From Candidatus Saccharimonadales bacterium (GTDB lineage: Bacteria > Patescibacteriota > Saccharimonadia > Saccharimonadales > Saccharimonadaceae): DNA of 49,703 nt. The notes under the pieces are model-generated. The model was given only the letters and a program-made list of their open reading frames with translations. It did not search any database and had not been told where the DNA came from. The translations under genes were made by a program, and so were the position numbers. Shown one piece after another: positions 10,755 through 48,803 of the stretch. The first letter of the stretch is position 1. Every line of letters begins with the position of its first letter. Location of the stretch: the NCBI GenBank assembly GCA_049291395.1, contig JBATPJ010000050.1, positions 1 through 49,703 on the forward strand, read 5' to 3'.

Positions 10755-10758
10755 CGCT

Positions 10759-12333: not shown

Positions 12334-13760
12334 TACAGCCCCAGACTCACCCCCGCATCACACAGACAGAGAATACATCTGGTGGGTTTGTGTTGATCGC
12401 GGTCATGATACTAACGTTCTTTGTGATTGCTGCCGGCACAGTTACCGCCCAGCTCGCATCAAGTAATCTCCGCGCTGCAAACATAGAGACATACCGCGTC
12501 AACGCTCAGTTTGCCGTAGATGCTGGCGCCGATGAATCAGTCTACGAAGTCAACAAGGCACTTATCAACAATACGTCGTGGACCGGCACAGGCACAGAAA
12601 AAACCGTCTCTGATCAACCAAGTTTTAAGACCACCTATATCGCCGACGTCGATGACGTCATCATCAACGGCGAAGATCGAAAGATCCTCACCGTTACCGG
12701 CAAGACATACAGCCCTAAGACTGCCTCCACTCCCATATCATCACGCACCTACACCGTCACTCTTCGACCTATCGAGGCAGGTGACTTTTCTGTCGTCACG
12801 GGAGTTGGTGGTCTTGTCATGGAAAACAGTGCCAGGATCGTCGGCGGGAGCGTCTTCGTCAATGGAACCATCACCATGAGTAACTCATCACAGATTGGCC
12901 TCAGCAACGCCCCTGTTGACGTGTTTGCCGCCCATCAGAGCTGCCCACTCGGTGGCGGATCGGGATACCCCACGCAGTGTGGTAGCGGCAATGGTGAGCC
13001 AATCAGTATCAGCAACCCGGCATGGATATACGGGGATGTCAGCGCCCAAAACCAGACAAACGGCAGTCGCATGTCAAATGGAGGACTAATCCCAAACCAA
13101 TCAGTCGCGCCCAAAGCGCTCCCAGTTCATGACCGAAGTGCCCAAAAAGCCGCCGTTATCAACGACGCCGCACATCAGCTAACTGGAGCCAGTGCAAGCT
13201 GTACAACCAACGGCGGGACAAAGACATGGCTTGCGAACACTAAGATAACTGGCAATGTCACTATCAGCAAATCATGTACCGTCACTGTAGAAGGTGACAT
13301 CTGGATAACAGGTGGGGTGACCATGGCTCAATCTGGCACTCTGAAGGTCAAAAACGGCCTGACAGTACCACCCGTTATCATGGTGGATAGTACAGTCAAT
13401 GCCAACAACTCCGCTACTTTTGCGTCAAACAATGGCAGCCCAAAGATTGGCTTTCGTGTCATCACCTACAAAAACAGCCTCGACAATCCCGATGTAGTCC
13501 CGACAGGCTCTGATCTCTATAGCAGCAGTTCTCTCGAGACGGTCAACCTCGCGCAGACATCGTCAGGTCCAAACACGGAGTTCTATGCCAAATGGTCTCT
13601 TGTAAATATCGGCAACAGTGGCGGTATCGGTGCCGTCACAGGGCAGACCATCAAACTCAATAATTCCGCCGCCATCACGTTCGGCACCAAGATCGTCGGG
13701 CTCCCCAGTATCATGGCGTGGGTTATCGAATCGTACCGCCGTGACTACACCCCCCTGTAA
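12330..13760 (+). CDS. PilX-N-like pilus-associated protein with large beta-rich C-terminal domain
   Basis: 476 aa with ATGA overlap to the preceding gene. N-terminal hydrophobic segment GGFVLIAVMILTFFVIAAGTV lacks the +5 Glu, followed by the amphipathic AQLASSNLRAANIETYRVNAQFAVDAGADE. The remainder is Gly/Ser/Thr/Asn-rich with repeat-like beta segments. Confidence 0.6.
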   Translation: MIQPQTHPRITQTENTSGGFVLIAVMILTFFVIAAGTVTAQLASSNLRAANIETYRVNAQFAVDAGADESVYEVNKALINNTSWTGTGTEKTVSDQPSFKTTYIADVDDVIINGEDRKILTVTGKTYSPKTASTPISSRTYTVTLRPIEAGDFSVVTGVGGLVMENSARIVGGSVFVNGTITMSNSSQIGLSNAPVDVFAAHQSCPLGGGSGYPTQCGSGNGEPISISNPAWIYGDVSAQNQTNGSRMSNGGLIPNQSVAPKALPVHDRSAQKAAVINDAAHQLTGASASCTTNGGTKTWLANTKITGNVTISKSCTVTVEGDIWITGGVTMAQSGTLKVKNGLTVPPVIMVDSTVNANNSATFASNNGSPKIGFRVITYKNSLDNPDVVPTGSDLYSSSSLETVNLAQTSSGPNTEFYAKWSLVNIGNSGGIGAVTGQTIKLNNSAAITFGTKIVGLPSIMAWVIESYRRDYTPL

Positions 13761-13827
13761 AGACCAATCTAGATACCGGATCATCTGCCGAGCCTACCTT
13801 GCATAGTACGGGCCATGTCCCGAGGGC

Positions 13828-13855
13828 TTGACTCTCATGAAACAACCATTATACT
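13828..13855 (+). promoter_or_regulatory. sigma70-like promoter for the major pilin gene
   Basis: TTGACT (13828-13833), a 16-nt spacer, then TATACT (13850-13855). A strong SD (AAAGGGGGG, 13901-13909) precedes the ATG at 13915. Confidence 0.55.
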
Positions 13856-13914
13856 TATGCTTAAGATCCCATAATAACCATATGGATCAGCATCAATCTA
13901 AAAGGGGGGCATCT

Positions 13915-14373
13915 ATGCTCAAAAAATATTCACAAAAAGGTTTCACGATCGTCGAGCTCTTGATCGTTATCGTGGTCATCGGTATTCTCGCCGCTCTGGT
14001 CCTCAACACGTTCTCGGGCGTCCAGAAACGTGCTCGTGACACTCAGCGTCAGACAGACGTCAACGCAATCGCAACACAACTTGAGGTCTACTACAACGAC
14101 AATGGTACATATCCACTTGCGGCAGGCGTGACCGTGCCGAACTTCAAGGGTATTGATGCTGGTGCGCTTCAACCACCGCAAAGTACTCAGACAGCCCTTA
14201 AGGACACTGCTGCTGCACCAACAGCTGCTGCAGACTTCGGCGTCGGTACTGCTGAGCAATACCTCTACCAGTGTGAGTCAGGCAACGGTACAAGCTGTGG
14301 AGCATACACCCTGTACTGGTGGAACGAGGACAAGGCTCAGGTTCGTAAGAAAGAAAGTCTTAACCGCCCATAA
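13915..14373 (+). CDS. type IV major pilin candidate
   Basis: Start set at ATG 13915, behind the SD. Class III signal MLKKYSQKG|FTIVELLIVIVVIGILAALVLNTF. It has its own promoter and a strong terminator and is the shortest pilin in the locus (152 aa). Confidence 0.8.
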   Translation: MLKKYSQKGFTIVELLIVIVVIGILAALVLNTFSGVQKRARDTQRQTDVNAIATQLEVYYNDNGTYPLAAGVTVPNFKGIDAGALQPPQSTQTALKDTAAAPTAAADFGVGTAEQYLYQCESGNGTSCGAYTLYWWNEDKAQVRKKESLNRP

Positions 14374-14392
14374 TTTCTACTGGCAAATCATC

Positions 14393-14427
14393 GAAAACCC
14401 CTTCGTCAAAAAAGGGGTTTTCTTTAT
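14393..14427 (+). terminator. intrinsic terminator after the major pilin gene
   Basis: Stem gaaaacccctt/aaggggttttc around an 8-nt loop, followed by tctttat. Confidence 0.7.
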
Positions 14428-14464
14428 ATATCAATGATATAATAGGCATAAGTACTACTATAGG

Positions 14465-15526
14465 ATGGGCATGCAACAAACACTTTTTCTCCACCATCGG
14501 CCACTCGTGGGTATTGATATCAGTCACACCTACGTCAAGCTAATGTCTCTGACCCCTTCCAAATGGGATGTGACCAGCTATGGCTCGATCAATGCCGACC
14601 CCGTCAAGCTACGGAGCAGCCTCACTGGCTCACCGGATTATCTGGTCGAGCTCTTAAAAGGTCTCGTCGAGAAAAACATCGTCGGCAAGCTACCAAGTGA
14701 ACAAGTAATCATCAGTATCCCGACCAACCTCACCTATAGCCGTAGCGTCTCGCTCCCGAAGGCCGCGATCAAAAAGCTCGATGATGCGATCTCCCTCGAG
14801 GCAGGTCAGTATATCCCTGTCGCATTGTCCGAGCTCAATCTGTCATATGAGATACTCGCGGAGAACGACGACACGATCGAAGTCCTGATGTCGGCAGCGC
14901 CGAAGGTAATCATCCAAAACGTCATGACCGCGTGTCGCGCAGTCGGTCTCGTACCGCTCGTCATCCAGCCGAGCATTAATTCCGTCGCACGGCTCATCAC
15001 GCTTACCGAGCAAGGGCACCTCCCGACAGTCATCGTCGATATCGGCGCTGCCGATACAGATCTTTCCATCTTGAACGACCGTATCCGTGCAAATGCAAGC
15101 GTCCAAGTCGGCAGCAACACACTCACCTATGCCATCTCCGAAAAACTCGGCGTCAGCCTCGAAAATGCCCACCAGCTCAAGGTGCTTCATGGCCTCTCAT
15201 ATGGGACGAAACAGAAAAAGATCCTTGAAGCTGTTGATACTCCCTTATCCCAAGTCGTTAATGAGATCCATAAAATCATCCGATACTACAACGATCGTAT
15301 CGACGCATCGACGCATATCGAGCAGATCATCATCGTTGGTAGCGGCTCGGACATCCCTGGTCTCGGTGAATACTTTACCGACAAGCTTGTCATGCCAGCA
15401 CGTGTTGCAAGTCCGTGGCTTGCCCTTAATTTCGGTAGTCTCCCCCAGCCCGCCAAGCAATTTCGCCCGCGCTATATCACTGTCATCGGTCTCGCAGCCA
15501 CCAAGTATAAGGAGATCAGCCTATGA
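14465..15526 (+). CDS. pilM: type IV pilus assembly protein PilM (actin-like ATPase fold)
   Basis: 353 aa. Motifs VGIDISHTYVKLM and VIVDIGAADTDLSIL, plus a C-terminal IIIVGSGSDIPGL typical of PilM/FtsA-like proteins. Confidence 0.8.
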   Translation: MGMQQTLFLHHRPLVGIDISHTYVKLMSLTPSKWDVTSYGSINADPVKLRSSLTGSPDYLVELLKGLVEKNIVGKLPSEQVIISIPTNLTYSRSVSLPKAAIKKLDDAISLEAGQYIPVALSELNLSYEILAENDDTIEVLMSAAPKVIIQNVMTACRAVGLVPLVIQPSINSVARLITLTEQGHLPTVIVDIGAADTDLSILNDRIRANASVQVGSNTLTYAISEKLGVSLENAHQLKVLHGLSYGTKQKKILEAVDTPLSQVVNEIHKIIRYYNDRIDASTHIEQIIIVGSGSDIPGLGEYFTDKLVMPARVASPWLALNFGSLPQPAKQFRPRYITVIGLAATKYKEISL

Positions 15527-16095
15527 TCAACCTTATCGGCCATAAGTACCGCGCAGAGCTCGCCGCAGCAAAGCGTAATGTAATCCTGCGCAAATATGTC
15601 TCGACCTTGATCCTTCTGATCGTTGGTATCGCTGCCTGTTACGGGGTAGGGTACATGATGCTCGACAACCAACAGCGTGAATACGAAAAGCAAATTGCAA
15701 CCTACGCCCCTCAGCGCGAATGGTTCAACGCAACCGTTGATGATGCCCGAGTGTTCAATAAAAACTTGGCGGTAGCAAAATCAATCCTGAGTAACGAGGT
15801 CATCTATAGCTATCTTGTGCTAACCATCACGTCACAACTTCCTCCTGGTGCGGTGCTTGCAAATCTCAGTCTACGCACCAAAGATCTAGCCCAGCCAATC
15901 CCACTCACGATCGTTGCCAAGACACCAAATGATGCCGTCGCCACCAAAAACGCCTTCGATCAGAGTACGGTATTTAAAGACACCAAGCTCAAAACAGTTG
16001 ATAAGACCCTCAATGATGAATATCCCTACACTGCCGTACTCATCACGACAATCGACATGGAATTATACCTCAAGCGGCAAGGGGCGATCCAATGA
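15523..16095 (+). CDS. pilN: PilN-like bitopic pilus assembly protein
   Basis: 190 aa with ATGA overlap to pilM. Short basic N-terminus, a single TM (LILLIVGIAACYGVGYMML), then a periplasm-type domain. The call rests on size, topology and synteny. Confidence 0.6.
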   Translation: MINLIGHKYRAELAAAKRNVILRKYVSTLILLIVGIAACYGVGYMMLDNQQREYEKQIATYAPQREWFNATVDDARVFNKNLAVAKSILSNEVIYSYLVLTITSQLPPGAVLANLSLRTKDLAQPIPLTIVAKTPNDAVATKNAFDQSTVFKDTKLKTVDKTLNDEYPYTAVLITTIDMELYLKRQGAIQ

Positions 16096-16688
16096 AGCCC
16101 ATGAAGCTGACGTTTAACGCCATCGTCATGCAGTACCTCCTACTCGGTACCTGTTTCGTAATTATCGGTGGAATCGTATGGATATCAATCGCCGCCAACG
16201 ATCTGCTGACGGCAAAAGCCATGGAGGTTGATCACAGACGTACCGATGCCGAGCTCGCCCAAGAAGAGTTAGTTGGACTTGACAACCTAAGGAATAATCT
16301 CGACGATAACGCTGATGTCGTCAATAAGACCAAAGAGATCGTTGCCACCGCCGAACAATACCACTTCCAGGATCAAGTTATCCAGGATTTAACCGTCTAT
16401 GCCAAGCAAGCGAAGATCGAAATCATCGGCTATGATTTTGGTTCGTCACCCGGCGCAAAAGTTGCCCCGACCAAAGGTGTCGCAACCCCCTCCAATGTCC
16501 CGCCCAAGACACTCGTCACGGTACGCCTGCAAAATGACATCCCCTATACATCATTCCTGCGATTCCTGATGTCGATCGAGCAAAACGTCACGAAGATGCA
16601 ACTCACCGGACTTACTCTCCAGCCAGTTGATAAATCACCGACAAATGTACAGGGCCCGATCATCGAGCTGGAGGTATTCATCCAATGA
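16092..16688 (+). CDS. pilO: PilO-like bitopic pilus assembly protein
   Basis: 198 aa, overlaps pilN. Single TM (LLLGTCFVIIGGIVWISIAA), then a coiled-coil segment. Called on topology and synteny. Confidence 0.5.
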   Translation: MKPMKLTFNAIVMQYLLLGTCFVIIGGIVWISIAANDLLTAKAMEVDHRRTDAELAQEELVGLDNLRNNLDDNADVVNKTKEIVATAEQYHFQDQVIQDLTVYAKQAKIEIIGYDFGSSPGAKVAPTKGVATPSNVPPKTLVTVRLQNDIPYTSFLRFLMSIEQNVTKMQLTGLTLQPVDKSPTNVQGPIIELEVFIQ

Positions 16689-16996
16689 AACTTGACACTG
16701 CGCAGCTGAAACAACTAAGTGCAGCACTCAAGCGTGTCGGTGGTCATTTTAAGATCATTTCATTTGTACTGGCGATGGGTACGCTGATCTACTGCGTCTA
16801 CTCTATCCAGCAAGTCTTCAATCTCCCTGTCGACCAAGGCTACTACGATCAGCAACAAGTCAAAAACACACGCTCGTCATTCGACAAGACAACGATCGAC
16901 AAAGTTCGCCAGCTTCACACCATCGATGATTCGACGGTCACGCTTCCCGTCGGTCGCATCAATCCATTTACCCAAACCAGGAATACTACCCCCTAA
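16685..16996 (+). CDS. small bitopic membrane protein coupled to pilMNO
   Basis: 103 aa with ATGA overlap to pilO. One TM (IISFVLAMGTLIYCVYSI). No family recognised. Confidence 0.5.
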   Translation: MKLDTAQLKQLSAALKRVGGHFKIISFVLAMGTLIYCVYSIQQVFNLPVDQGYYDQQQVKNTRSSFDKTTIDKVRQLHTIDDSTVTLPVGRINPFTQTRNTTP

Positions 16997-17030
16997 ACCC
17001 TCACGTTTTTTGCTACACTAAGTAGGACAT

Positions 17031-19583: not shown

Positions 19584-19625
19584 AGGTTCCTCCGTGTGTT
19601 TATCTCTCTATTATACCTCTTGCAG

Positions 19626-19634
19626 TGGTATAAT
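19626..19634 (+). promoter_or_regulatory. extended -10 promoter element (TGgTATAAT) for the orphan pilin gene
   Basis: The sequence tggtataat ends 9 nt before the ATG at 19644 and there is no SD, which implies a leaderless or near-leaderless mRNA. A minus-strand TATAAT (19610-19615) serves recA back-to-back. Confidence 0.45.
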
Positions 19635-19643
19635 TGTACCTAT

Positions 19644-20033
19644 ATGAAGAAACAATCTGGCTTTACTGTTGTCGAAATCCTCGTTGCTATCGTACTCATA
19701 ATCGCCGCGGGAGTACTCTTCTTGCAGCAAAAAAGTCAAATCGAACGCGTCGACCGTGATCGAGAACGCAAGATTGCCATAAATGCCATGTATTACAGCC
19801 TGGAAGAAGTCTACTACACGGCAAACAAATCCTACCCGAGCAAACTGACCGCGGACAATCTTAAAAGCATGGATCCAGCCCTCCTCAAAGACCCAGACGG
19901 CATCAAGATCGGTGATCAAGGGTCTAACTATCGTTACGACCCGACGGGTTGCGATGGCAATGCCTGCAAGAACTTCACACTTCGAGCAACACTCGAAGCT
20001 GAAGCTGACTTCGTCAAAAAATCAAACCGCTAG
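19644..20033 (+). CDS. prepilin-type protein (orphan pilin, divergent from recA)
   Basis: Start set at ATG 19644. Class III signal MKKQSG|FTVVEILVAIVLIIAAGVLF. 129 aa. Confidence 0.8.
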   Translation: MKKQSGFTVVEILVAIVLIIAAGVLFLQQKSQIERVDRDRERKIAINAMYYSLEEVYYTANKSYPSKLTADNLKSMDPALLKDPDGIKIGDQGSNYRYDPTGCDGNACKNFTLRATLEAEADFVKKSNR

Positions 20034-23879: not shown

Positions 23880-25412
23880 TCACTTTTTGCCGAGCTTCGT
23901 AGCTAGTCGCTTGTACCCGTCTCTCACTTCGCTGCGCCATTCATAGAGTGCGTATCCTACACCGCCCGCCACCACGACAGCGACGATAGCATACGGATTT
24001 GTCAGCCATGATGCTGTCGACGTATCAGCTTCTGCCGGCTGAGCAAGACTCGATGTGACAGTGGAGGCGCCAACAACTTTTTTGCATCGGTTAGTTGCAG
24101 GATTTCGTTCATAACCCTCATCACATGGCAGCAATTCTGCGACGGCGCTGGCAATACTACGACAGCGATTAGTCGTTGGATTACGCTCCTGACCTTCACC
24201 GCATGGCACGAGCGTTGTCGAAGCGCCAAGTACCGATGATCGACAGCGATTAGTCGCCGGGTTACGTTCTTGACCTTCAGGACAACTCGTCAGCGCATTG
24301 ACTACTTCTTCGATCGCCCGACAACGATTTGTCTCAGGGTTACGATACTGACCAGCGGGACACGACTTCGGTGCTTCGATGACGATTTCTGGTAGCGTTA
24401 TTTTGTTCACCATATCTGGTTGCGGCGTCATGGTCCATTGCCATGTGCCTTCACTATCGCTGACCCACGACCAGCCTTGATGGTCGCTCGATGCACTGTC
24501 GTATTTCGTCATCGAGGCTTCATATATTGTGTTGTATTTATCTGCCAGCCAGACGTAGCCACCCGAATTTGTCAGGCTTATCCGCGCCCCATCGTCAGTT
24601 AGAAAAATCGTCCGGTAGGCTCCTGGCATGATCCCACCGCTAAGACTAAATGTATTTGAACTTGTCGAACTTGTCGAGCTACTATCGCTCCGCAGCACGA
24701 GGTCGTCGAGAAATTGCACAGTATTAGTTGGGTTGTATAGCTTCACATAGTCGCCGCACAGCACACTCGTATCGATCGGCGAACAATCACTGGCGTATGG
24801 ATAAATCTCATCGATGATGATGGCTGGAGTTGGCGGTGCTGTATATAGCCAATCATTCATGAGCGTCAACTGCGCCAGCGACGTCGAGCCGATTTCATCA
24901 AACGCAGCGGCGGCCGTACTATAGCCAGTCGTCGTCATGCGTCGCAGCCACGTATCATTTGGATTTGTCGATTTCGTAGCCTGGATGACCTCGCTCGTTT
25001 TGTACGAGCTACCCACAGGCGGGATTATCTTGATGCTATCGGTGCTCACGATCACACGGTTGAGAGCAATGACGGGCGGCATGTCGTCACCGGACATGAC
25101 CGCATCGTTATAGCTCGCGATGACATGATGTTTTGCTTCGAGCAGCCCATCGAGATGCGGCAGTAATCCAGTGCTATCCGAAGACGTGGCGATCGTCCAA
25201 TCGTTTAGATCAATTGGACTCGAACTCGTATTGTACAGTTGTAAAAATGAGCGGGTATTGACGCCTGTCGTACGCTGAAAAGCCGATACAATGATCGGCG
25301 AATCATACAAAAATTGTGTTTCGACAGTCGTGATCGCAGAGGCTTGAGATGTAGCCATGGCCGAACCAATGGCTAACCCCACCCACAGTATTACCCTCAC
25401 TGTGGCTTTCAT
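23880..25412 (-). CDS. secreted, C-terminally membrane-anchored protein with two lamin-tail-like domains and four Cys-bracketed repeats
   Basis: Signal peptide MKATVRVILWVGLAIGSAMATSQASA. LTD-type strands (LQLYNTSSSPIDLNDWTI; YVKLYNPTNTVQFLDDLVLRSD). Four copies of C-x-x-G-x-x-RNP-x-TNRC (aa 351-443, nt 24084-24362). C-terminal TM AIVAVVVAGGVGYALY plus a basic tail. Confidence 0.6.
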   Translation of the reverse strand: MKATVRVILWVGLAIGSAMATSQASAITTVETQFLYDSPIIVSAFQRTTGVNTRSFLQLYNTSSSPIDLNDWTIATSSDSTGLLPHLDGLLEAKHHVIASYNDAVMSGDDMPPVIALNRVIVSTDSIKIIPPVGSSYKTSEVIQATKSTNPNDTWLRRMTTTGYSTAAAAFDEIGSTSLAQLTLMNDWLYTAPPTPAIIIDEIYPYASDCSPIDTSVLCGDYVKLYNPTNTVQFLDDLVLRSDSSSTSSTSSNTFSLSGGIMPGAYRTIFLTDDGARISLTNSGGYVWLADKYNTIYEASMTKYDSASSDHQGWSWVSDSEGTWQWTMTPQPDMVNKITLPEIVIEAPKSCPAGQYRNPETNRCRAIEEVVNALTSCPEGQERNPATNRCRSSVLGASTTLVPCGEGQERNPTTNRCRSIASAVAELLPCDEGYERNPATNRCKKVVGASTVTSSLAQPAEADTSTASWLTNPYAIVAVVVAGGVGYALYEWRSEVRDGYKRLATKLGKK

Positions 25413-26191: not shown

Positions 26192-27643
26192 CTATTCGAT
26201 GATATTTTGTGAACGAAAGTTAAACTTTGTGTGTCGCCATATGACAAGAAATGCTGCGATCAACATGAGATACACCGCCACCATCACATCTGCCGATATC
26301 GTCAGTAACTGCTGCGCCCATGACGGCGAAGCAAGCCATCGGACGATCGCAACGAAGTAGCTCAGTAGTATCTCCGCCGGTAGTCCAACGATTGTTGCCA
26401 GCGCCGGTACAATCATCGCGCCAATCCCTGCGATAAATGTTAGTAACATTACAAATGGGATAAGCGGCGCCGTCAGTACATTTGCGACGATCGCAAGGAC
26501 GGGTAGATTTCCAAATACCATCAGGATGATAGGCAGCGTCATTATTTGCGCCGCAATTGTCTCGACCACAATCTGCACGATACCGGATAGTTTGCGCTCA
26601 CGCATGATCAGCCGCGTCATGAGTGGTGCGATGATCAAGATACCTGCAAACGCAAGAAACGACAACCACCAGCCGACGTCCGCCCATAGATACATCGGGT
26701 TGATCATGGCCGTCGCAGCGGCGACATACACCAGCAGCAAGAATGGATGAAAGGCCCTCCCGAAATACCACGCCAGCAAGCTCAGTCCGGCGACAATACC
26801 CGCACGATTCATCGATGGGCTAGCACCAGAAATCGCGATAAACCCGACGATCAATATCGACGAGCTAAACGCCACCAAATATTTCGATCGTTTTTCGAAC
26901 AAGCGTTTGGCGGCACGTACCAAGATCGTGAGATTGTACCCACTAGCCACGATAAGATGTGTCAGGCCGACGATACGTAGCTGCTCTTCGAGCGTCGGCG
27001 GTAGTGCCGTCTTCTGCCCGACAACGAATCCTACGCCGAGACTCGCAGCTGGTTCGACGACGGCCGTTCGTACCGCTCTCACGAACTGATCACGAAACGC
27101 AACCATCGGATCACCTGATGCGACGTGGGATACGAGTGTCGGATACAACATGGTCAGTTGATATGACCCGAAGCCCGGCTTGGTCGTGCCGTTAAGAGTG
27201 ATACTATCGCCTCGCGATATGTCAGTATGCTCACCGCGAAGTGTCAGCCAGATATCGCCATCCATCGCCTCATCATTGATCGCAATATGCGTCAGGCTAA
27301 TCCGTGTATCACCACGCGGAGAGATCTCCGGATCTTCGGATAGCACGCCCCGCACCAGCACTTGCTTATCCTGCATGGACTGGATAGTCGATAGATCGTG
27401 CTGCGTAGCCGTTCCCCTCATCATGCCGATCACAACCGCTATGCACGTAATACCAAGCAGCGCATACCATCGCCGACTTGCAAATGGCGCCGCCATGACG
27501 ATACACATGACACCCATGATCCAAGCATCCACCGGCATATATATCAGCCTTGATAGGCCAAGTCCGACGAGCAGCCCAGTACACATCCACCCAATCGCAT
27601 ATGACGAATGGAACTGTTTATAGAGCCAGCTATGGTGGTTCAT
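26192..27643 (-). CDS. comEC: DNA internalisation channel ComEC/Rec2 (no C-terminal metallo-beta-lactamase domain)
   Basis: 483 aa. N-terminal TM helices and an OB-like insert (DUF4131-type region VLVRGVLSEDPEI...ITLNG). This is followed by the polytopic competence domain (GLTHLIVASGYNLTIL). The protein ends shortly after the last TM. Confidence 0.75.
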   Translation of the reverse strand: MNHHSWLYKQFHSSYAIGWMCTGLLVGLGLSRLIYMPVDAWIMGVMCIVMAAPFASRRWYALLGITCIAVVIGMMRGTATQHDLSTIQSMQDKQVLVRGVLSEDPEISPRGDTRISLTHIAINDEAMDGDIWLTLRGEHTDISRGDSITLNGTTKPGFGSYQLTMLYPTLVSHVASGDPMVAFRDQFVRAVRTAVVEPAASLGVGFVVGQKTALPPTLEEQLRIVGLTHLIVASGYNLTILVRAAKRLFEKRSKYLVAFSSSILIVGFIAISGASPSMNRAGIVAGLSLLAWYFGRAFHPFLLLVYVAAATAMINPMYLWADVGWWLSFLAFAGILIIAPLMTRLIMRERKLSGIVQIVVETIAAQIMTLPIILMVFGNLPVLAIVANVLTAPLIPFVMLLTFIAGIGAMIVPALATIVGLPAEILLSYFVAIVRWLASPSWAQQLLTISADVMVAVYLMLIAAFLVIWRHTKFNFRSQNIIE

Positions 27644-38011: not shown

Positions 38012-38803
38012 CTAGGACTTTTCTTGTATGATCATCAGTCGCGTACGATGATGAGCCGTATCGAAGACGGTCGCGCCGAAGCTAATAAGCCGCTGTGTGT
38101 CTTCGGCAAGTGTCTGGTTCACGTCAAATAGCGAGTCGGGATCAGTCGATGACACGACCGTGACGGTGAAGACCGGCATGCCGATACAGCGGGCAAATAC
38201 CCGCTCGGTCTGCGCACCCAGCGATTTATCAGGATCGATTAGTCGAACCATTCGTTTCATAGGATTGATACGAAACTCTTTCTCGTAGAGCGTCGCAAAT
38301 GTCGCCCCCATCGTAAAATACTCCTGAGCGCGTTTCTCTGGATCGACATGAGAATTAAATCGCATCAGATCCACCCCTGCGTGTTCCAGCGCGATACGAT
38401 GACGAGTACGTATGACATCGATATCACTATCATCATCCAGTTCGAGACCGCCAATCACCATCAACCAAAACTCCAAATATTCTGACTGCTTCCAGCCAGT
38501 ATAGCCAAGCATGTATGGCTCGATAGAACTCTCTGGGACTATTTGGTTATCATCCACAAGTTGCGTTGTCAGTAGGATAGCCGACGTCGTATTGCGCTCG
38601 ATCACGTCCTCGATCTTTTTATTGTGAGGATCATAGAGATGCCCGCCACTCGTGATCACGGTGCTTAGATACGTCCGTCGCTCAAGACCGAGCGACCGCT
38701 CGATATGCAGAAAATATCGATAGGCTTCATACGGATCCCATTGCTCACGCAAGGCCTTTGCGGTCAGATCTCGGAGCAGTGGACGATACGAAAATTTCGA
38801 CAT
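38012..38803 (-). CDS. hypothetical cytoplasmic protein
   Basis: Open frame of 263 aa from ATG 38803 (the tracked TTG start at 38842 is also possible). No signal peptide, no TM and no motif I can assign. Confidence 0.45.
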   Translation of the reverse strand: MSKFSYRPLLRDLTAKALREQWDPYEAYRYFLHIERSLGLERRTYLSTVITSGGHLYDPHNKKIEDVIERNTTSAILLTTQLVDDNQIVPESSIEPYMLGYTGWKQSEYLEFWLMVIGGLELDDDSDIDVIRTRHRIALEHAGVDLMRFNSHVDPEKRAQEYFTMGATFATLYEKEFRINPMKRMVRLIDPDKSLGAQTERVFARCIGMPVFTVTVVSSTDPDSLFDVNQTLAEDTQRLISFGATVFDTAHHRTRLMIIQEKS

Positions 38804-38959
38804 ACTACTATTGTATAGCCCTGTTACGTCTACCTCAAGCAATAGCGTTTAGATTGATACTCGGGGTAGTATCCACCACCCACAAAACCAAACTCGCCAT
38901 CTTCATATCTATCATTGCGATTTGCGAGAGATTATTTTCAAAGTTTTATCTACAATGAA

Positions 38960-39604
38960 TTATGCAACCACTTTCTTAAGTGTTTTTAGTTTACTTACTA
39001 TACTATCCAGCTGGTATATCGCCTTTAGAATCTCTTTGGTTAGCTCGATTGCAACCTCAAGTTCGTCCTCGCCGATCTCATCAAATTCTTTTAACTCAAG
39101 GTGTGCGGCATCATTACCTAGTAGACGTAAGTTATCCATGGCATCAAACAGTGCGTCTGGCAACGTAACTTGATTCCTTAGGGCTTTGATTCTTGCAACC
39201 AAGTTTGAGCCATTTGCTCCTCTATCATCGCAAATCATTTCGAGTGTTTTTCGAACCATAATTGCCGACGCTATATAGCATTCATTTGCCTCACACAATA
39301 GAGCTTCTTCGAAATTTTGAGATATTGGCTCAGGAATTGAATCATTATTAAAGTCAATCATTATTCTAGGATAGGTCACCAGTCGATTATCTATTTCTTG
39401 TATGAGTAGTTGGCCCTGGCAATCCGGCCGAGGGCATTTTCTCACACCTAGTCGAAATCTAACAACGTCCTGACCCACAATGTCGTAGTCATTTTGCCCT
39501 GTTCCTACAAAGCCAACCATGTACTTACAGTGCGGACATCGGGCATCAACAATTGTTTGAGACCCGTGGCTATTGTTTATAACTCTAATTTTTTGAATAG
39601 TCAT
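38960..39604 (-). CDS. zinc-ribbon + DUF4145-like domain protein
   Basis: 214 aa. CPHC...CPRPDC zinc ribbon. The C-terminal helical region EEALLCEANECYIASAIMVRKTLEMICDD...LRLLGNDAAHLE matches my memory of the DUF4145 pattern. Clearly AT-richer than its neighbours. Confidence 0.55.
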   Translation of the reverse strand: MTIQKIRVINNSHGSQTIVDARCPHCKYMVGFVGTGQNDYDIVGQDVVRFRLGVRKCPRPDCQGQLLIQEIDNRLVTYPRIMIDFNNDSIPEPISQNFEEALLCEANECYIASAIMVRKTLEMICDDRGANGSNLVARIKALRNQVTLPDALFDAMDNLRLLGNDAAHLELKEFDEIGEDELEVAIELTKEILKAIYQLDSIVSKLKTLKKVVA

Positions 39605-43692: not shown

Positions 43693-44607
43693 CTAAATCG
43701 GTACGCCCCAGCCGCGAAATGGCAGCAATGCATTGCTCACAAGCACCTCAGCATAGACAAGCTCAGCCCGAACGAGTGGCGAACCTCCAGCAAGTACCTC
43801 AGCATAGACGGTTTCAGTCTGCACGAGCGGCGAGCCCGCGGCAAGTACTTCCGCGTAGACACTCTCTGTTTGCATAACTGGATTATTGTACATAACCTCG
43901 AGATAATTAGCTTCGATCCGTGCGTTCTGGTTAATGGATCCACCCGCATCGAAATGCGCCGTAACACGGGCCGCGCTGAGACAGGTAGAATAGTACGCGA
44001 CCTCATCGGTCGTCCCGTTATACGCGAAAAAACCTGCCATCTTGCCGATATAAAAAGGTAAGGTTGCCGAACTCGCAATCGTAAAACTTGCCGCAGTAGA
44101 TGCTGCAACTTGCCCATCAACATACAGTGTGGCCGTCGAGCCATCCCAAGTTCCGACGACATGGTGTCTCAAACCATCTGAGTATGCTGATGTCGTCTGG
44201 AGGGTAAACGCTGGTTGCCATACACTCGTGAAGACCTGAAATATGAGCTGTCCGCTATTGAGATATATACGAGCCGTGTTGGTATTGGCGCTGCCAAAAG
44301 CGCCAGCGTTAGTTCGTCCAACAAGGCCAAGCGTGCCCGATGTCGTTGTGCTGAACCAGCACTCTATTGATAACGCGCTCCCGACGTTCATCCATGATGC
44401 GGCCGCGATACTACCAATGCCAGCGGTCGTCGAGACAGCCGTATCGCTATCACCACCGAGAAGGCCTGACGCTCCGAGCGTATAGGACCCGGCATACGTG
44501 CCATCCCTGCTGTTGCCCGATGAGTCAACGATAGTCGAACCACTCGACTCACCAAGCCTCCAGTAAGCGAGTGGCGAGTCAGCTAAAACCTCTGTGCTAT
44601 ATGACAT
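43693..44607 (-). CDS. LamG/concanavalin-A-like jelly-roll protein with three C-terminal 17-aa repeats; no signal peptide
   Basis: LamG-type pattern: SPLAYWRLGESSGSTIVDSSGNSRDGTY, SIECWF, HHVVGTWDGSTATLYVDG, TDEVAYYSTCLSAARV. The C-terminus carries three copies of xxE(S/T/L)VYAEVLxxxxxLV. The start abuts the upstream stop (TAGATG). Confidence 0.7.
   Translation of the reverse strand: MSYSTEVLADSPLAYWRLGESSGSTIVDSSGNSRDGTYAGSYTLGASGLLGGDSDTAVSTTAGIGSIAAASWMNVGSALSIECWFSTTTSGTLGLVGRTNAGAFGSANTNTARIYLNSGQLIFQVFTSVWQPAFTLQTTSAYSDGLRHHVVGTWDGSTATLYVDGQVAASTAASFTIASSATLPFYIGKMAGFFAYNGTTDEVAYYSTCLSAARVTAHFDAGGSINQNARIEANYLEVMYNNPVMQTESVYAEVLAAGSPLVQTETVYAEVLAGGSPLVRAELVYAEVLVSNALLPFRGWGVPI
43720..43872 (-). 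repeat. three tandem 51-nt (17-aa) imperfect repeats at the 3' end of the LamG-like gene
   Basis: The three units are QTESVYAEVLAAGSPLV, QTETVYAEVLAGGSPLV and RAELVYAEVLVSNALLP. Confidence 0.85.
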
Positions 44608-45606
44608 CTATGCTACCTCGAAACCAGCTTCTAACGCGTTCACACCCGATTGCGTCCATGCTGCCGATGTATTTGGATCTACGATATGGATATTACGTAT
44701 GATCGAATCAGCCGTCGTGAGCGCTGTCGTTGTCCCGTAGTATACGGTTGCCCCTGATTTGACTGCTGGCTTCAACGAGATCGATGAAACATCAGTTTTC
44801 TTGGCAATGATACTATTCTGGACACCGAATATTGTCGTTGTACTACCAACATCCGAGAACGTATAGGTATCTCGATGTCCGGACGTCGTATCCTGCACGT
44901 AGTCGGTCGTCGAATACGGCAACTCGTCAACCGTCGTATAGTTCGCACCACTCGAGGGTGTAAACTGCGTTGATGAACCAGCACCATTCGGTGACAAGGT
45001 ACTTATCCGAACCTCACCAAGAAACGTGTTGTATGGCGCTGAACCAGTTGAATCACAGAGGTACAAATCGTCAAAATAGCAAACTTGGTTATATGCTCCA
45101 TAGTCACCGATCGCAACTGCATCGATCGTCGTATTTGTACCGCCGTTTTTCGTGTCACCGGTGAAATTGATGACCGTTACGCCGTTCACTCGTACGATAC
45201 ATTGTCCTACGGTATCGTCGATACTGGCGCTTACTTCAAAATAATTACCCCACGCGGTACGCTGCGTCACTGTAGCTGAAGCCAGTGTCGTGCCACCACG
45301 CGCGACAGTGAGTGTCGTTGTATTCGTGAATTGCACCGTAAGATGACTCGTCGCAGAGTTGTCACCAAGAATCGTCAGAAATGCTTGATTTGGTGTCGGT
45401 GAAGCATCCTGAAACATCGCAAATCCGACGAAGACTTGCGAAACGGGTGCGAATACTTTTTTAAGATATCCCCCAGCGGCATACATATAGACGGATCTTC
45501 CTACGCTAAAATTCGTACTCGTCGACGAGCCATACGTGCCCGTACCTGGCGACCATTTTATCAAGTAATCGGCCGCGTCAAAGCCGTCCATAAAAAGCAG
45601 TGCCAT
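44608..45606 (-). CDS. beta-rich hypothetical protein, paralogue A (MALLFMDGFDA family); no signal peptide
   Basis: 332 aa, exactly the same length as the upstream paralogue. By eye it appears more than half identical to it. Confidence 0.7.
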   Translation of the reverse strand: MALLFMDGFDAADYLIKWSPGTGTYGSSTSTNFSVGRSVYMYAAGGYLKKVFAPVSQVFVGFAMFQDASPTPNQAFLTILGDNSATSHLTVQFTNTTTLTVARGGTTLASATVTQRTAWGNYFEVSASIDDTVGQCIVRVNGVTVINFTGDTKNGGTNTTIDAVAIGDYGAYNQVCYFDDLYLCDSTGSAPYNTFLGEVRISTLSPNGAGSSTQFTPSSGANYTTVDELPYSTTDYVQDTTSGHRDTYTFSDVGSTTTIFGVQNSIIAKKTDVSSISLKPAVKSGATVYYGTTTALTTADSIIRNIHIVDPNTSAAWTQSGVNALEAGFEVA

Positions 45607-46604
45607 TACACTGCTCCGATACCTATCTCGATCGCATTGACACCACTAGATGTCCAGGCAGTTGACGTATTTGGATCGACTTGACGTGTATCCGTGATCG
45701 TCGTATCACTCGTTCCGGTCGCAGTTGTCGTGCCATAGTAGGTCGTTGAGCCAGATTTGATCGCTGTTTTGCCAGATATATTTCCGGCATCGGTCTTTTT
45801 CACCATAGCATTGGTCTGGACACCATAGATCGTACCCGCTCCACCGGGTAGATCACTCGTCGCATAAAGATCCGTCTGGCCTGACGTCCCCGAAACATAA
45901 TCAGCCGTCGAGTATGGTAACTCGTCAACCGTCGTATAGTTCGCACCACTCGAGGGGGTCATCTGTGTCAATGAGCCGGCTGCATTTGGTACAAGTGTGT
46001 GGACTCGCACATCACCGAGAAACGTGTTGTGTGGCGCTGAACCAGTTGAATCACAGAGGTACAAATCATCGATAAATAAAGCTGGGGTGAAACCGGTAAA
46101 CTTGCCGAGTGATATCGCATCAATATTTGTGCTCGTGCCAGCATTTCTAGTATCACCGGTAAAGTTAATCACTGTCGTGCCATTAACCTTCACGACACAG
46201 GTACCCCCAGAGTCAGCAATGGTCGCCGATACTTCAATATATGCACCCCAAGCCAGAGGAGCACCGACTGAGGCAGAGGTGATAACCGTACTTGTACCAC
46301 GCAGTATATCCAATGTCGTTGAGCTGCTGAACTGCAATGACAAATGTGTTGTTGTGCCCGTATCGCTCCTAATGTCAAGGAATCGAGCCGAACCAGATGG
46401 AGTAGTGCCGAATTTTAACGCTAGTCCAATGAACAGCTGACTCGAAGCTGGAATTGTTCTTGTAACATTGTCTCCACTAGTCGCCATATACCACGATCTT
46501 CCAGTGGAAAACCGCGTATCGGTATTTGATGATCCACCACTCGAACTGGTCCATTTCGGTCCAGCATCACCCGCATCAAACCCATCCATAAACAAAAGCG
46601 CCAT
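45606..46604 (-). CDS. beta-rich hypothetical protein, paralogue B (MALLFMDGFDA family); no signal peptide
   Basis: 332 aa. Its stop overlaps the paralogue A start by 1 nt (TAATG). Confidence 0.7.
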   Translation of the reverse strand: MALLFMDGFDAGDAGPKWTSSSGGSSNTDTRFSTGRSWYMATSGDNVTRTIPASSQLFIGLALKFGTTPSGSARFLDIRSDTGTTTHLSLQFSSSTTLDILRGTSTVITSASVGAPLAWGAYIEVSATIADSGGTCVVKVNGTTVINFTGDTRNAGTSTNIDAISLGKFTGFTPALFIDDLYLCDSTGSAPHNTFLGDVRVHTLVPNAAGSLTQMTPSSGANYTTVDELPYSTADYVSGTSGQTDLYATSDLPGGAGTIYGVQTNAMVKKTDAGNISGKTAIKSGSTTYYGTTTATGTSDTTITDTRQVDPNTSTAWTSSGVNAIEIGIGAV

Positions 46605-46608
46605 AGTA

Positions 46609-47058
46609 TTATTTTACCCCAATCTGTACAGTTAAGTCACTTCCGGCAACGGTGCTACCAACTTGATCGATGTCGACAGTCATATAGCTACCGTTTGCGA
46701 CGGTGGTAGTGTTCATATTTGATACCAGGCCTGATGTGTTTGTGCTGACAGCAATCGTCGGGCGGTTGGCCTGCGTGCTAAAAATCGTCGTGCCATCGAC
46801 GTTGATATCGATGATAGCGCTGGAGCCAGTCGGTGCCGTGCCGACGCTAGCGCGGACATTTTGGATCGTCCAGGTATTGCCGCTGTCGTTGTAGAGCCGA
46901 AATGTCCCGGTCGTTACGGACAGACTACCTCCATACGAGTACGGAAGGATGGTGCTGATTTTCTGCGTCCCATCAGAATTGTGCGCGACAGATAAATAGT
47001 CGTTGAGGACGGTACCCCAAGAGTTATCATCTGATCCGACAACGGGTAGTCGAGACAC
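46609..47058 (-). CDS. small beta-rich protein with tail-fibre-like N-terminal motif; no signal peptide
   Basis: GTG start with AAGGAG 11 nt upstream. The N-terminus is MSRLPVVGSDDNSWGTVLNDYLSVAHNSDGTQK. 149 aa. Confidence 0.65.
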   Translation of the reverse strand: MSRLPVVGSDDNSWGTVLNDYLSVAHNSDGTQKISTILPYSYGGSLSVTTGTFRLYNDSGNTWTIQNVRASVGTAPTGSSAIIDINVDGTTIFSTQANRPTIAVSTNTSGLVSNMNTTTVANGSYMTVDIDQVGSTVAGSDLTVQIGVK

Positions 47059-47144
47059 GCGGCGGGACGCTCCTTAGAAAAACTTACAATTATCACCTAT
47101 AAGTTTATCATAACCACGATACTACCATCACCCCATATAGGTTA

Positions 47145-47741
47145 TCAATTCGTCATAGCAGTATAGACCACATCACGACTGTATGTATCAACCGCCTTCG
47201 TCGTATCAGCACAGGCTCCATACCAAATATCAGTTACTTCGGCACTCGCGGCCGCTGAGGTCGTGAGGAGTGTCGTCGGTGATGCATTAACAGGTATCGT
47301 GGCAAATGATAGCCCAGGGATGCTAGTATTCGTCGCTGCACTGGTCGGACCAGCACCAAAACCACCCTTGCCATCGACGCGATAGCCCCATGTATTGACC
47401 GCAAGTGACGCTGGACTCGCAAATGACCCACCGTTGCCCGGGATCGTACCAGCAAAGTTCACACCGAGGAGATTTGTCGATGATGAAGTCGAGGCAAGTT
47501 GCAGCGTATAGCCTGTCGTCGCACCGGTCGTCACCTGCACGACGTCGTTATTGATCGTGCATGTCGCTGAGCCGGTCGGCGTAATCGCAAGGTTCACCGT
47601 GCCAGATGATGTGATCGTGATGCCACACGAGCCATACTGACATTTGCCATACTGCCCTGCACCGTAGTTCAGCGCCGATACTGGACCAAACCAACTCATC
47701 GCTATAATACCTGCGACAAATACCGCTATGAGTCGTTTCAT
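47145..47741 (-). CDS. secreted Gly/Thr/Ser-rich beta protein (WxL-like?)
   Basis: Signal peptide MKRLIAVFVAGIIAMSWFGPVSA. The mature N-terminus is NYGAGQYGKCQYGSCG. Trp-containing segments NTWGYRV and DIWYGAC are present. ATGA overlap with the upstream gene. Confidence 0.6.
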   Translation of the reverse strand: MKRLIAVFVAGIIAMSWFGPVSALNYGAGQYGKCQYGSCGITITSSGTVNLAITPTGSATCTINNDVVQVTTGATTGYTLQLASTSSSTNLLGVNFAGTIPGNGGSFASPASLAVNTWGYRVDGKGGFGAGPTSAATNTSIPGLSFATIPVNASPTTLLTTSAAASAEVTDIWYGACADTTKAVDTYSRDVVYTAMTN

Positions 47742-48712
47742 GATGATCTCATCTTAGCATGAGCGGCTTGTGACCGTCGACGCAGCCGCCACCACAGGGA
47801 TATCGCGATACCAAAGAGCGCCCCACCCAGCAGCAATGGGTGGATGATCAGTATCCACATATCGGGAAGCGTCCGAGTCGCACCATAAAATCTAGCCTCA
47901 CGATTGACGCGGTATACACCAAACACCGTATCGGCACGCCACGTGAGATCGATACGACGCTCGGTTCGCGGTAGTACGTAGCGCTGCAGTGCCTGACTAT
48001 CCACAGATCGTCCAAAGATGTCATGAACTTCCATAGAGATATCGGCGAGATAGTGCACGCCTCCATCGTTGCGAAGGGTACTCTCCATATCGATTTGGCC
48101 ACCGAATGAGAACCAGGGACTTGACCGAGCCGTGTAGTCCCCTGATCGCGTAACGTCACCTGGGACCGTGATATAGATGATATGTACCAGCTGATGATGT
48201 ATCGTCACTCCACCCGCTGCGATACGAGGCACAGCATCAGCGGTAATCGCCGCATAGTACCCCCCGGGCTTCGCAGCACTCGGTATAGACACAGAGTACA
48301 TCACTTCAACCATCGCCCCAGCACGTAGCTCGCTCGACACTTCAGCACCAATCGTGACCCAGCGTGAGGGGTCATCCTGAGCTGAAATCGGCTGGAGATC
48401 CGGGGTGTACTGATCCCCCGAGACACTGTACGGACTCACTTTGAGACTAAGCGTGACTGGCTGAGAGCCTTGGTTCACGAGCGTGATGCGTTGCTGGACG
48501 GTGCCGCCCGCCACGACGTCGACATCAGCAGTACTCGGAGACAGCGTGAGTTTCTGCACAGGAGCTGCCACTACTACCGCAGTTGATAGCAACCCTATAA
48601 ACAACGCATAAAGGGCGCTAACCGCCGTACGTACGATTGCCGTATGACTTGGCCGAGTCTTTAAGGCCTGTCTGCCCGGCACCTGAAATAAATTGCGAGA
48701 TAAGTCCACCAC
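47738..48712 (-). CDS. membrane-anchored double beta-sandwich surface protein (DUF916/DUF3324-like architecture)
   Basis: GTG start (48712, or 48682). N-terminal signal/anchor ALYALFIGLLSTAVVVAAP and two beta-rich halves (VVAGGTVQQRITLVNQGSQPVTLSLKV ...). C-terminal TM LLLGGALFGIAISLWW plus RLRRR. Confidence 0.55.
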   Translation of the reverse strand: MVDLSRNLFQVPGRQALKTRPSHTAIVRTAVSALYALFIGLLSTAVVVAAPVQKLTLSPSTADVDVVAGGTVQQRITLVNQGSQPVTLSLKVSPYSVSGDQYTPDLQPISAQDDPSRWVTIGAEVSSELRAGAMVEVMYSVSIPSAAKPGGYYAAITADAVPRIAAGGVTIHHQLVHIIYITVPGDVTRSGDYTARSSPWFSFGGQIDMESTLRNDGGVHYLADISMEVHDIFGRSVDSQALQRYVLPRTERRIDLTWRADTVFGVYRVNREARFYGATRTLPDMWILIIHPLLLGGALFGIAISLWWRLRRRSQAAHAKMRSS

Positions 48713-48803
48713 TCAATAATAGCAAAATACCAACACCGATGTGCTGTAAGAATTCTCCTCGCGACATCTCGCGATCTAGAATAGCTGGTGGACGAATTGT
48801 CAT
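48618..48803 (-). CDS. small ORF with Tat-signal-like N-terminus
   Basis: 61 aa (49 aa from the second Met). MSRGEFLQHIGVGILLLLSGG resembles an S-R-R-x-F-L-K signal with one Arg replaced. It ends in YGNRTYGG. It overlaps the 5' end of the next gene out of frame, so coding status is uncertain. Confidence 0.3.
   Translation of the reverse strand: MTIRPPAILDREMSRGEFLQHIGVGILLLLSGGLISQFISGAGQTGLKDSAKSYGNRTYGG

Follow-up and report, generated by a model that had tools for sequence, protein, structure and literature searches.

A stand-alone cassette of phage-type receptor-binding genes in a Saccharibacteria chromosome

What are four tightly coupled genes for jelly-roll and tail-fiber-like proteins doing among the housekeeping genes of a Saccharibacteria chromosome? 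We address this question for a stretch of 49,703 nucleotides (nt) from a Candidatus Saccharimonadales bacterium (contig JBATPJ010000050.1; the whole stretch is hereafter the window), in which the four genes, g1 to g4 in order of transcription, form a compact module. An initial annotation of the window had proposed either a domesticated phage receptor-binding module or an adhesion apparatus. The phage part of that proposal is now strongly supported for all four genes, by matches to PHROG phage profiles, by fold matches, and by a gene order conserved in phage tail operons, while a role in host recognition is one that we infer. We hold it highly probable that the module is a stand-alone copy of the distal part of a siphophage tail operon, the part for receptor binding, and that it resides in the chromosome. 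In what follows, L-numbers (L004, L012, L075, and so on) are labels of the contigs or loci compared.

Phage families and tail-operon gene order

Every one of the four genes matches phage families in PHROG. The two central genes, g2 and g3, are tandem paralogs of equal length that both begin MALLFMDGFDA, as first annotated, and we find them to be 56% identical. They belong to phrog_2448, here called F330, whose profile covers the full length of both proteins (residues 1-331/335; E = 2e-29 for g2 and E = 1.5e-37 for g3). With 21,087 clusters at the 50% identity level, the family is very large, and Pfam has no model for it. Its members share a hypervariable N-terminal ConA-like jelly-roll head, a conserved hinge, and a conserved C-terminal beta-sandwich, with entropies of 2.0 bits in the head, 1.0 in the hinge, and 1.3 in the C-terminal domain. 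The AlphaFold2 model of g3 (mean predicted local distance difference test [pLDDT] score, 88.6) has the same composition, the hinge being extended. When the predicted viral structures of BFVD were searched with Foldseek, full-length g3 matched phage proteins of 320-365 amino acids (aa) at TM-scores of 0.80-0.88; these matches include the virion protein AchV4_0026.

Two tracts within the hinge are near-identical between g2 and g3 at the DNA level. Codon identity at conserved residues is 0.9 and 0.78 in these tracts, compared with 0.2-0.5 elsewhere in the gene pair, which suggests gene conversion. In a neighbor-joining tree of F330 proteins, phage and chromosomal copies are interleaved; g2 falls together with the first of the L075 copies (bootstrap 77%), and paralog groups show a weak positional correspondence between genomes. 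Tandem F330 copies (two to three) also occur in the chromosomes of predatory bacteria, the Bdellovibrionales metagenome-assembled genomes (MAGs) L030-L033.

The first gene, g1, opens with a 37-aa adaptor (MxRLPxPGxDDxxWGxxLNDFLxVxHNxDG) and ends in a beta-sandwich knob. The initial annotation had linked this N-terminus with phage tail-fiber or minor-tail proteins, and the motif proves to be real: a consensus built from the chromosomal fibers (g1 and its relatives) matches the N-termini of fiber- and spike-like proteins in Streptomyces phages and N-termini in 31 IMG/VR viral contigs of 34-70% guanine-cytosine (GC) content. Among 50,697 isolated phages, the matches comprise six records, all Streptomyces phage. 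The first 34-36 residues of two of these phage proteins, Alone3 gp41 and BRock gp186, are 59-67% identical to the consensus. In both proteins an interchangeable receptor-binding domain follows the adaptor; it is a beta-helix in Alone3 and differs in fold in BRock. There the adaptor gene is part of a complete virus, whereas in Saccharibacteria the same 37 residues head orphan genes, namely the knob fibers and the spike gene of L163 described below. All chromosomal fiber copies keep the adaptor strictly.

The g1 knob matches phrog_27064 (E = 3e-27), the C-terminus of the Synechococcus phage S-CRM01 tail fiber, and a Rhodobacteraceae phage virion protein, and it has at least 432 matches on viral contigs. 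The AlphaFold2 model of g1 (pLDDT 75) consists of a helix at residues 13-25 and a beta-sandwich. Since its Foldseek matches in the PDB are weak and to assorted beta-sandwiches (the lambda gpJ C-terminus, Pgp3, and CBM36, all with E > 0.01), we claim no specific knob fold. In the fibers of relatives, a collagen-like or DUF5907 shaft of 100-300 aa separates adaptor from knob; g1 of the window has no repetitive shaft, its adaptor being fused straight to the knob, and we therefore regard it as a shaft-less fiber. Similar shaft-less proteins of 150-170 aa are found on viral contigs too. Proteins of 162 aa encoded in prophage-like regions of Streptosporangiaceae share 60-66% identity with the knob. 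Two of these come from Planobispora and Microbispora (L040 and L042, gene 10001-10489; knob identity 60%-62%); they have a different N-terminus (MPKFxSALxLPEQASPxNP), and their neighborhoods encode Amidase_2, DnaB, and SSB, with no tailed-phage structural genes found there by Pfam.

The last gene, g4, was first described as a LamG/ConA-like jelly roll with three 17-aa repeats. This holds, with a match to Laminin_G_3 (PF13385; E = 4.9e-16, 59.7 bits against a gathering cut-off of 27.6) and with a further, degenerate fourth repeat. At the DNA level the repeats have a period of 51 nt (2.4 copies, 43740-43861, tandem repeat finder), and the protein ends in FRGWGVPI. Terminal proteins of relatives keep the repeats and a GWG(V/L)P tail but vary in the N-terminal domain, which may be LamG, F5/8C, or missing. 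Sixteen of the 20 phage records matching the LamG region of g4 are Streptomyces phages.

The order of these families is that of siphophage tail operons. In Achromobacter phage vB_AchrS_AchV4, genes 0025-0027 lie directly after the "tail fiber" gene 0024 and all match the F330 profile; AchV4_0025 and AchV4_0026 have been detected in virions by liquid chromatography-tandem mass spectrometry (PMC7996906). The viral contig L012 has a tape measure gene, phrog_838 and phrog_837 minor tail proteins, a knob-bearing collagen fiber, an F330-LamG fusion, F330, LamG-F5/8C, and an M23 endolysin, and L103 has a knob fiber, two F330 genes, and LamG. The same order is seen in tail operons of Brevundimonas, Sphingomonas, and Mesorhizobium phages. 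As in the window, an F330 gene stands directly downstream of a fiber gene in AchV4, the Mesorhizobium phage, L012, and L103, and it does so too at 11 of the 79 viral loci with a knob; in other phages, F330 genes come after tape measure or fiber genes, often in tandem, and arrays of two to eight copies are common in viral contigs. Compared with such distal tail modules (AchV4 0024-0027, L012, L103, Brevundimonas phage Delta 31-32, and Mesorhizobium phage Cp1R7A-A1 113-116), the cassette has the same families in the same order but no tape measure, tube, baseplate, capsid, or lysis genes. It is instead flanked by housekeeping and surface-protein genes, its fiber is shaft-less, its terminal protein has 304 aa rather than the 1,000-1,670 aa seen in high-GC phages, and its GC content matches that of the host genome.

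Which phages might have supplied such genes? The phage F330 copies closest to g2 and g3 (43%-52% identity) lie on contigs of 65-68% GC, mostly of about 70-78 kb (L012, L043, and L199-L201). L012 has 67% GC, and the 134 phage records hit by its minor tail protein are without exception actinophages. The F330 proteins of L012 share 51-52% identity with g3 and with the copy of the Patescibacteria locus L018, and one of them groups with this L018 copy (bootstrap 86%). A second L012 protein gave no matches and L200 a single uninformative one. The top viral matches of the knob are mostly high-GC as well. The actinophage link of adaptor and knob is a tendency and not exclusive: since the two parts are spread over the whole viral GC range, they are general modular phage parts, and we rejected the idea of an actinophage-specific adaptor because the IMG/VR carriers span 34-70% GC. 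We also considered L012 and L043 as phages of the candidate phyla radiation (CPR); their 67-68% GC, together with the actinophage-only matches of the L012 minor tail protein, argues against this. Three contigs of 47-49% GC (L044, L046, and L085) are possible CPR phages. Those Saccharibacteria that have been cultivated grow on Actinobacteria, and they show natural competence (PMC10633639). The window contains comEC, and natural competence would be a plausible route for the capture of phage genes.

A resident but accessory cassette

The layout of the module agrees with its first description (Table 1). On rechecking the coordinates we find four coupled minus-strand genes, with g1 and g2 separated by 4 nt, g2 and g3 overlapping in TAATG, g3 and g4 meeting at TAGATG, and a gap of 86 nt 5' of g1 that contains its Shine-Dalgarno site. 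Shuffled sequence has sigma-70-like sites of the kind present at 47148-47119 at least as often. The nearest named relatives of HrcA and of the module proteins are found in "Candidatus Saccharibacteria/Saccharimonadales" MAGs. Both flanks had been called housekeeping. This is right for one side, where gmk-hrcA-grpE-dnaK lie, but not quite for the other, where two secreted or membrane proteins of 198 and 324 aa and a small open reading frame (ORF) with a twin-arginine translocation (Tat) signal intervene between the cassette and tatC.

Table 1. Positions of the cassette genes, their parts, and adjoining features in the window
Feature	Position (nt)	Strand	Extent	Description
g1	46609-47058	minus	149 aa	GTG start; shaft-less tail fiber
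g1 adaptor	46948-47058	minus	residues 1-37	N-terminal motif
g1 knob		minus	residues ~40-149	C-terminal beta-sandwich
g2	45606-46604	minus	332 aa	F330 paralog 1
g3	44608-45606	minus	332 aa	F330 paralog 2
g3 hinge	44902-45096	minus	aa 171-235	most conserved F330 part; counterpart in g2, 45900-46094
g4	43693-44607	minus	304 aa	LamG terminal protein
g4 LamG domain	43963-44388	minus	aa 74-215	Pfam Laminin_G_3
g4 17-aa repeats	43720-43923	minus	aa 229-296	three clear units and one degenerate
Shine-Dalgarno site of g1	47070-47075	minus		AAGGAG, 11 nt ahead of GTG
Promoter-like site	47119-47148	minus		TTGATA, 18 nt, TAGTAT, with TG; consensus match upstream of g1
up198	47145-47741	minus	198 aa	signal peptide; secreted
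up324	47738-48712	minus	324 aa	signal, beta-sandwich regions, C-terminal membrane helix
Small Tat-signal ORF beside tatC	48618-48803	minus	61 aa	family of 55-70 aa; other copies: L020 6886-7044, L013 2243-2410, L018 13351-13554

No phage surrounds the cassette. Pfam scans of 46 ORFs of the window (a few lay outside the scan, including 38012-39604) identified a type IV pilus cluster, recA, ruvABC, comEC, dnaJ/K, grpE, hrcA, and gmk. They found no capsid, portal, terminase, tape-measure, sheath, or integrase genes, confirming what had been annotated at the outset, and no lysis, baseplate, tail, or tube genes either. Prophage hallmark genes are likewise lacking in the 10-kb flanks of L004, L013, L075, L020, and L021. 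The GC fraction of the module (0.504) is that of the window (0.507). Relative to L075, pN/pS is 0.20 for g1, 0.35 for g2, 0.38 for g3, and 0.25 for g4, and the neighboring genes hrcA and grpE have values of 0.12 and 0.36; selection is given in this form rather than as dN/dS because dS is saturated against this nearest relative compared. Purifying selection acts on all four genes.

The cassette recurs. With cellular neighbors only, it stands alone in at least eight Patescibacteria lineages (the window, L004, L013, L018, L020, L021, L010, and L075), always in the order fiber, one to seven F330 copies, and terminal repeat protein. That the module is embedded among core genes and free of prophage, as originally noted, therefore applies to these lineages as well as to the window. 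Six lineages (window/L006, L078, L075-77/L016, L010-11, L020, and L021), whose HrcA proteins are 71-88% identical to that of the window, carry it at the same locus, from lepA to (gmk)-hrcA-grpE-dnaK; the lepA side sometimes holds tatA-tatC and secreted proteins. Elsewhere it occupies other loci (L004/L017, L013-15, and L018), and the fiber gene of L004 lies on a Saccharibacteria contig of 729,692 bp (CAVSRJ010000001.1). Another genome with the cassette is DHXV01000001.1.

Individual arrays vary in their make-up. The largest, in L010 (1-9913), has seven F330 copies in two sub-arrays, each ending in a 17-aa repeat-tail protein (one of 501 aa with F5/8 type C, the other of 182 aa with repeats only), and a 166-aa repeat protein lies ahead of the array at the contig start. 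In L078, an otherwise identical strain, a single F330 gene (1731-2729) has about 190 N-terminal residues of g2 and about 140 C-terminal residues of g3; this chimera could be either a recombinational deletion between the tandem paralogs or an assembly artifact, and we do not count it as evidence because coverage is 0.6x and the hinge tracts of 36-38 nt are identical.

A second gap of the same region also holds orphan receptor-binding genes. Between grpE and dnaK we find tailspike-like genes in L163 (11466-13574) and L161 (12715-14112). The L163 spike combines the g1 adaptor with a DUF5907 shaft, a weak BppL_N match, and a right-handed beta-helix, a design shared with Alone3 gp41 of the Streptomyces phage; the L161 spike has the DUF5907 shaft and beta-helix and no adaptor. 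Across this lineage, the stock of orphan phage receptor-binding genes in the hrcA-dnaK region thus changes, with cassettes and spikes housed in two variable gaps.

Contrary evidence and rival explanations

Several observations weigh against a resident cassette that serves in adhesion or host recognition. When we sampled the locus through HrcA homologs, and not through the module itself, L161 (HrcA 95% identical) had lepA-gmk-hrcA with nothing between, L163 (82%) had three unrelated secreted proteins in place of the cassette, and L162 (86%) retained only a 125-aa repeat protein, a relic. The middle of the three F330 copies in L075 (11443-12472) is frameshifted into ORFs of 161 and 194 aa in the three independent assemblies L075-L077, one paralog having become a pseudogene with the other genes intact; the fiber of L004 (6230-8009) is split into ORFs of 176 and 421 aa, by a frameshift or an assembly error. 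Given the absence in L161, the relic in L162, and the frameshifted single copies, the cassette is accessory, not core. We found no match for it in cultivated Saccharibacteria. The deep nodes of the F330 tree have bootstrap values below 50%, and we have therefore given up the claim of a single monophyletic domestication. Adaptor and knob are joined to many different partner domains on viral contigs across a GC range of 34-70%, a phage host was inferred for L012 only, from one protein and its GC content, and the saturation of dS noted above belongs here too. The main weakness of an adhesion role is export. The four proteins lack signal peptides and transmembrane segments, as first annotated: no hydrophobic stretch is present in any of them (Kyte-Doolittle maximum over 19 residues ≤1.2, compared with 2.0-2.2 for the two upstream genes), and the starts MSRLPVVG, MALLFMDG, and MSYSTEVL show no Tat signal, having neither an RR motif nor a hydrophobic region. 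The Bdellovibrio MAT fibers discussed below, by comparison, all bear signal peptides.

Much of this evidence would also suit cryptic phage debris, the last remains of prophages integrated at a variable hot spot, without a cellular role and at most a reservoir from which infecting phages recombine new fiber genes; this explanation is the likeliest of the rivals, though in our view unlikely. It would account for the patchy distribution, for the frameshifted copies, for the possible chimera in L078 and the hinge conversion tracts, for the variability of the lepA-hrcA and grpE-dnaK gaps as islands, and for the interleaving of phage and chromosomal F330 copies. The initial annotation had itself named occurrence only in complete prophages with absence from sister strains, and pseudogenized copies, as points against its proposal. 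The cassette is missing from L161 and reduced to a relic in L162, and individual copies are frameshifted in relatives; it recurs on its own and not only within prophages. None of the at least eight chromosomal cassettes has an integrase, an att-like tRNA, or any other phage gene next to it, the same subset of genes survives each time in the same order, and module GC fully matches the genome. Moreover, pN/pS values of 0.20-0.38 resemble that of grpE, translational coupling and Shine-Dalgarno sites are intact, and the genes have been kept in lineages whose HrcA proteins diverge by 12-29% and whose genomes are <1 Mb. The stf/tfa genes of cryptic Escherichia coli prophages offer a comparison, as fiber genes that outlive their prophage and can recombine with incoming phages. 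These are found inside recognizable remnants of prophages, next to integrase, invertase, and other phage genes, whereas the cassette recurs alone at one housekeeping locus in species-level lineages and under purifying selection.

The missing signal peptides would be explained directly if the proteins acted inside the cell, as an anti-phage decoy whose fiber parts compete with the receptor-binding proteins of an infecting phage for the adaptor docking site, so that progeny phages receive stub or wrong fibers and cannot infect sister cells. Strict conservation of the adaptor in all chromosomal copies, the stub-like shaft-less g1, a patchy, island-like, fast-changing distribution such as defense genes have, and the existence of phages with the same adaptor all fit. 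Nevertheless, we judge this improbable. Since adaptor-plus-knob proteins of 150-170 aa are found on viral contigs, the short form is not a host invention, and the hypervariable lectin heads and the LamG protein are not accounted for; no adaptor-bearing phage of these organisms has been identified. A search of PADLOC-DB 2.0 with g1-g4 and the two upstream proteins gave no match at E ≤ 1, so a defense-system reading has no database support, and we know of no precedent for an intracellular fiber decoy. Alternatively, the genes might supply parts in trans, as fibers for a particle (prophage, tailocin, or similar to a gene transfer agent) whose other genes lie elsewhere in the genome. In Rhodobacter capsulatus, tail-fiber and head-spike genes of the gene transfer agent do lie apart from its main cluster, the adaptor implies a docking partner outside the module, and release by lysis would need no signal peptide; the region inspected was about 20 kb around each cassette. 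Such an arrangement nonetheless appears decidedly improbable, because no tail, capsid, or lysis gene is found in the 49.7-kb window or in the 20-kb flanks of eight lineages, the genomes have <1 Mb, and the cassette is gained and lost between close relatives without linked changes. As for ordinary cytoplasmic glycan-active enzymes that are phage-like in fold only, the top PDB matches of g3 are indeed ConA-like glycoside hydrolases or glycanases, polysaccharide lyases, and lectins. These matches are generic and confined to the N-terminal domain (query TM-score 0.3-0.43, identity 9-18%), compared with TM-scores of 0.8-0.88 for the full-length phage matches. The profiles are those of phage families, with no enzyme match in Pfam or NCBIfam, and the gene order is that of tail operons. 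The initial annotation would have yielded to confident matches with cytoplasmic enzymes, but the proteins matched at full length are those of phages, and we regard an enzymatic identity as very remote. NCBIfam gave no usable matches, and PDB sequence searches with the F330 and g1 profiles and with g4 gave nothing useful.

Surface-protein neighbors and a possible role in host recognition

The secreted neighbors bear on how the cassette might be displayed. L075 and L078 keep the pair up198 and up324 (Table 1) in the same place, immediately ahead of the module, and a link to the module is possible. Immediately after its signal, up198 has YGAGQYGKCQYGSCG, and the motif YGxxxYGxCxY at this site is shared with a 634-aa secreted protein upstream of the L020 module. 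The up324 protein has weak beta-sandwich matches (NPCBM_assoc and choice-of-anchor D), and its true start probably lies about 30 codons downstream of that annotated; neither protein has a PDB sequence match. The small Tat-signal ORF, which in the window overlaps the annotated 5' end of up324, belongs to a family conserved in four lineages, with a signal (MDRREFLQHIGVG) and a C-terminal GYGxSxYG; in the window copy, RR has degenerated to RG. A tatC gene and this small peptide lie within about 4 kb of the cassette in three different arrangements.

These neighbors invite comparison with the Pam pili of CPR bacteria. According to a 2026 preprint, the CPR-specific Pam pilus operons are consistently accompanied by a gene for a "tail fibre-like protein"; the operons encode signal-bearing, Ig-like pilins and PapD-like chaperones (PamC and PamD) with a C-terminal membrane helix (bioRxiv 10.64898/2026.03.03.709456). 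By topology only, up198 is pilin-like and up324 resembles a membrane-anchored chaperone of the PamC/PamD kind; a WxL/Csc-type surface cluster is an alternative topological likeness. The ATP-synthase neighborhood of the preprint is not seen at the window locus, and the preprint's tail-fiber-like protein may or may not be of the g1 or F330 families. Recurrent tatC, the small Tat-signal peptide, and the secreted Pam-like proteins nearby provide a lead to an export route.

Other surface and uptake genes lie elsewhere in the window. A type IV pilus cluster (7750-17000, plus strand) encodes a PilB-like T2SSE protein, a PilC-like T2SSF protein, four pilin-like proteins with an N-methylation motif, and PilM, and a further pilin-like gene is found near recA (19596-20033, plus strand). 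The start of the 596-aa PilB ORF overlaps tsaE on the opposite strand by 335 nt, so the true start of PilB is probably downstream. A sortase gene (4046-5029) adjoins a gene for a 517-aa protein without a Pfam match (5161-6714); a 510-aa lamin-tail-domain protein (23880-25412) and the natural competence protein ComEC (26192-27643) are encoded farther along.

Orphan or exapted tail-fiber genes are already known, in the stf genes of cryptic prophages and in the MAT fibers of Bdellovibrio bacteriovorus. The latter are the nearest functional analog of the role proposed here: each of the 21 MATs carries a signal peptide, after which comes a conserved, beta-rich N-terminal domain of about 130 aa, and the proteins are long single-chain trimers (PMC10769870). 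The cassette differs in lacking signal peptides, in its different, 37-aa adaptor, and in its multigene composition (fiber, F330 copies, and terminal protein); there is no sequence relationship, and the cassette is not a member of the MAT family. What is new is the setting in a CPR epibiont, the combination of F330 arrays with a common adaptor and knob, the signal-less proteins, the island that is syntenic yet accessory, and the similarity to high-GC, partly actinophage-like phage genes. We found no description of this cassette in Saccharibacteria in the literature.

Tentatively, and with somewhat less than even confidence, we propose that the cassette is an exapted adhesion or host-recognition complex. 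The proposal is better motivated because the nearest phage relatives are high-GC and partly actinophage-like and because surface-protein genes adjoin. The cassette would have been captured from the phage gene pool and then kept as an accessory, fast-diversifying complex. Its four products, made from one translationally coupled transcript, would assemble as on a phage tail, a trimeric g1 knob fiber being decorated with alternative F330 lectin heads and a LamG cap. Heads and cap might bind cell-wall glycans of an actinobacterial host, with specificity tuned by F330 copy number (1-7), shaft length, and repeat number; the assembly, glycan binding, surface display, and target of g1-g4 are all putative. 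A broader version, which strikes us as quite unlikely, is that environmental Saccharibacteria have repeatedly taken receptor-binding cassettes from the phages of their own actinobacterial hosts (knob fibers, F330 arrays, LamG caps, and beta-helix spikes, with the knob fibers and the L163 spike sharing the 37-aa adaptor) and display them on a Pam-like filament or other envelope structure by a nonclassical route such as Tat hitch-hiking, so that host range would be set by exapted phage determinants.

These results bring forward a family of >20,000 clusters that has no Pfam model although members have been detected in phage virions, and a portable 37-aa adaptor common to phage and Saccharibacteria fiber genes. 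They also raise the possibility of gene flow from the phages of the host into a naturally competent epibiont. Even if the cassette were debris or a decoy, tail-fiber genes would still persist alone under purifying selection in genomes of <1 Mb. In the choice of hosts by ultrasmall CPR epibionts, type IV pili and the newly described Pam pili have so far been implicated, but no specificity determinant. The cassette is a testable candidate for such a determinant: its lectin-type binders are modular and derived from phages, and close relatives differ in how many copies and which heads they carry.

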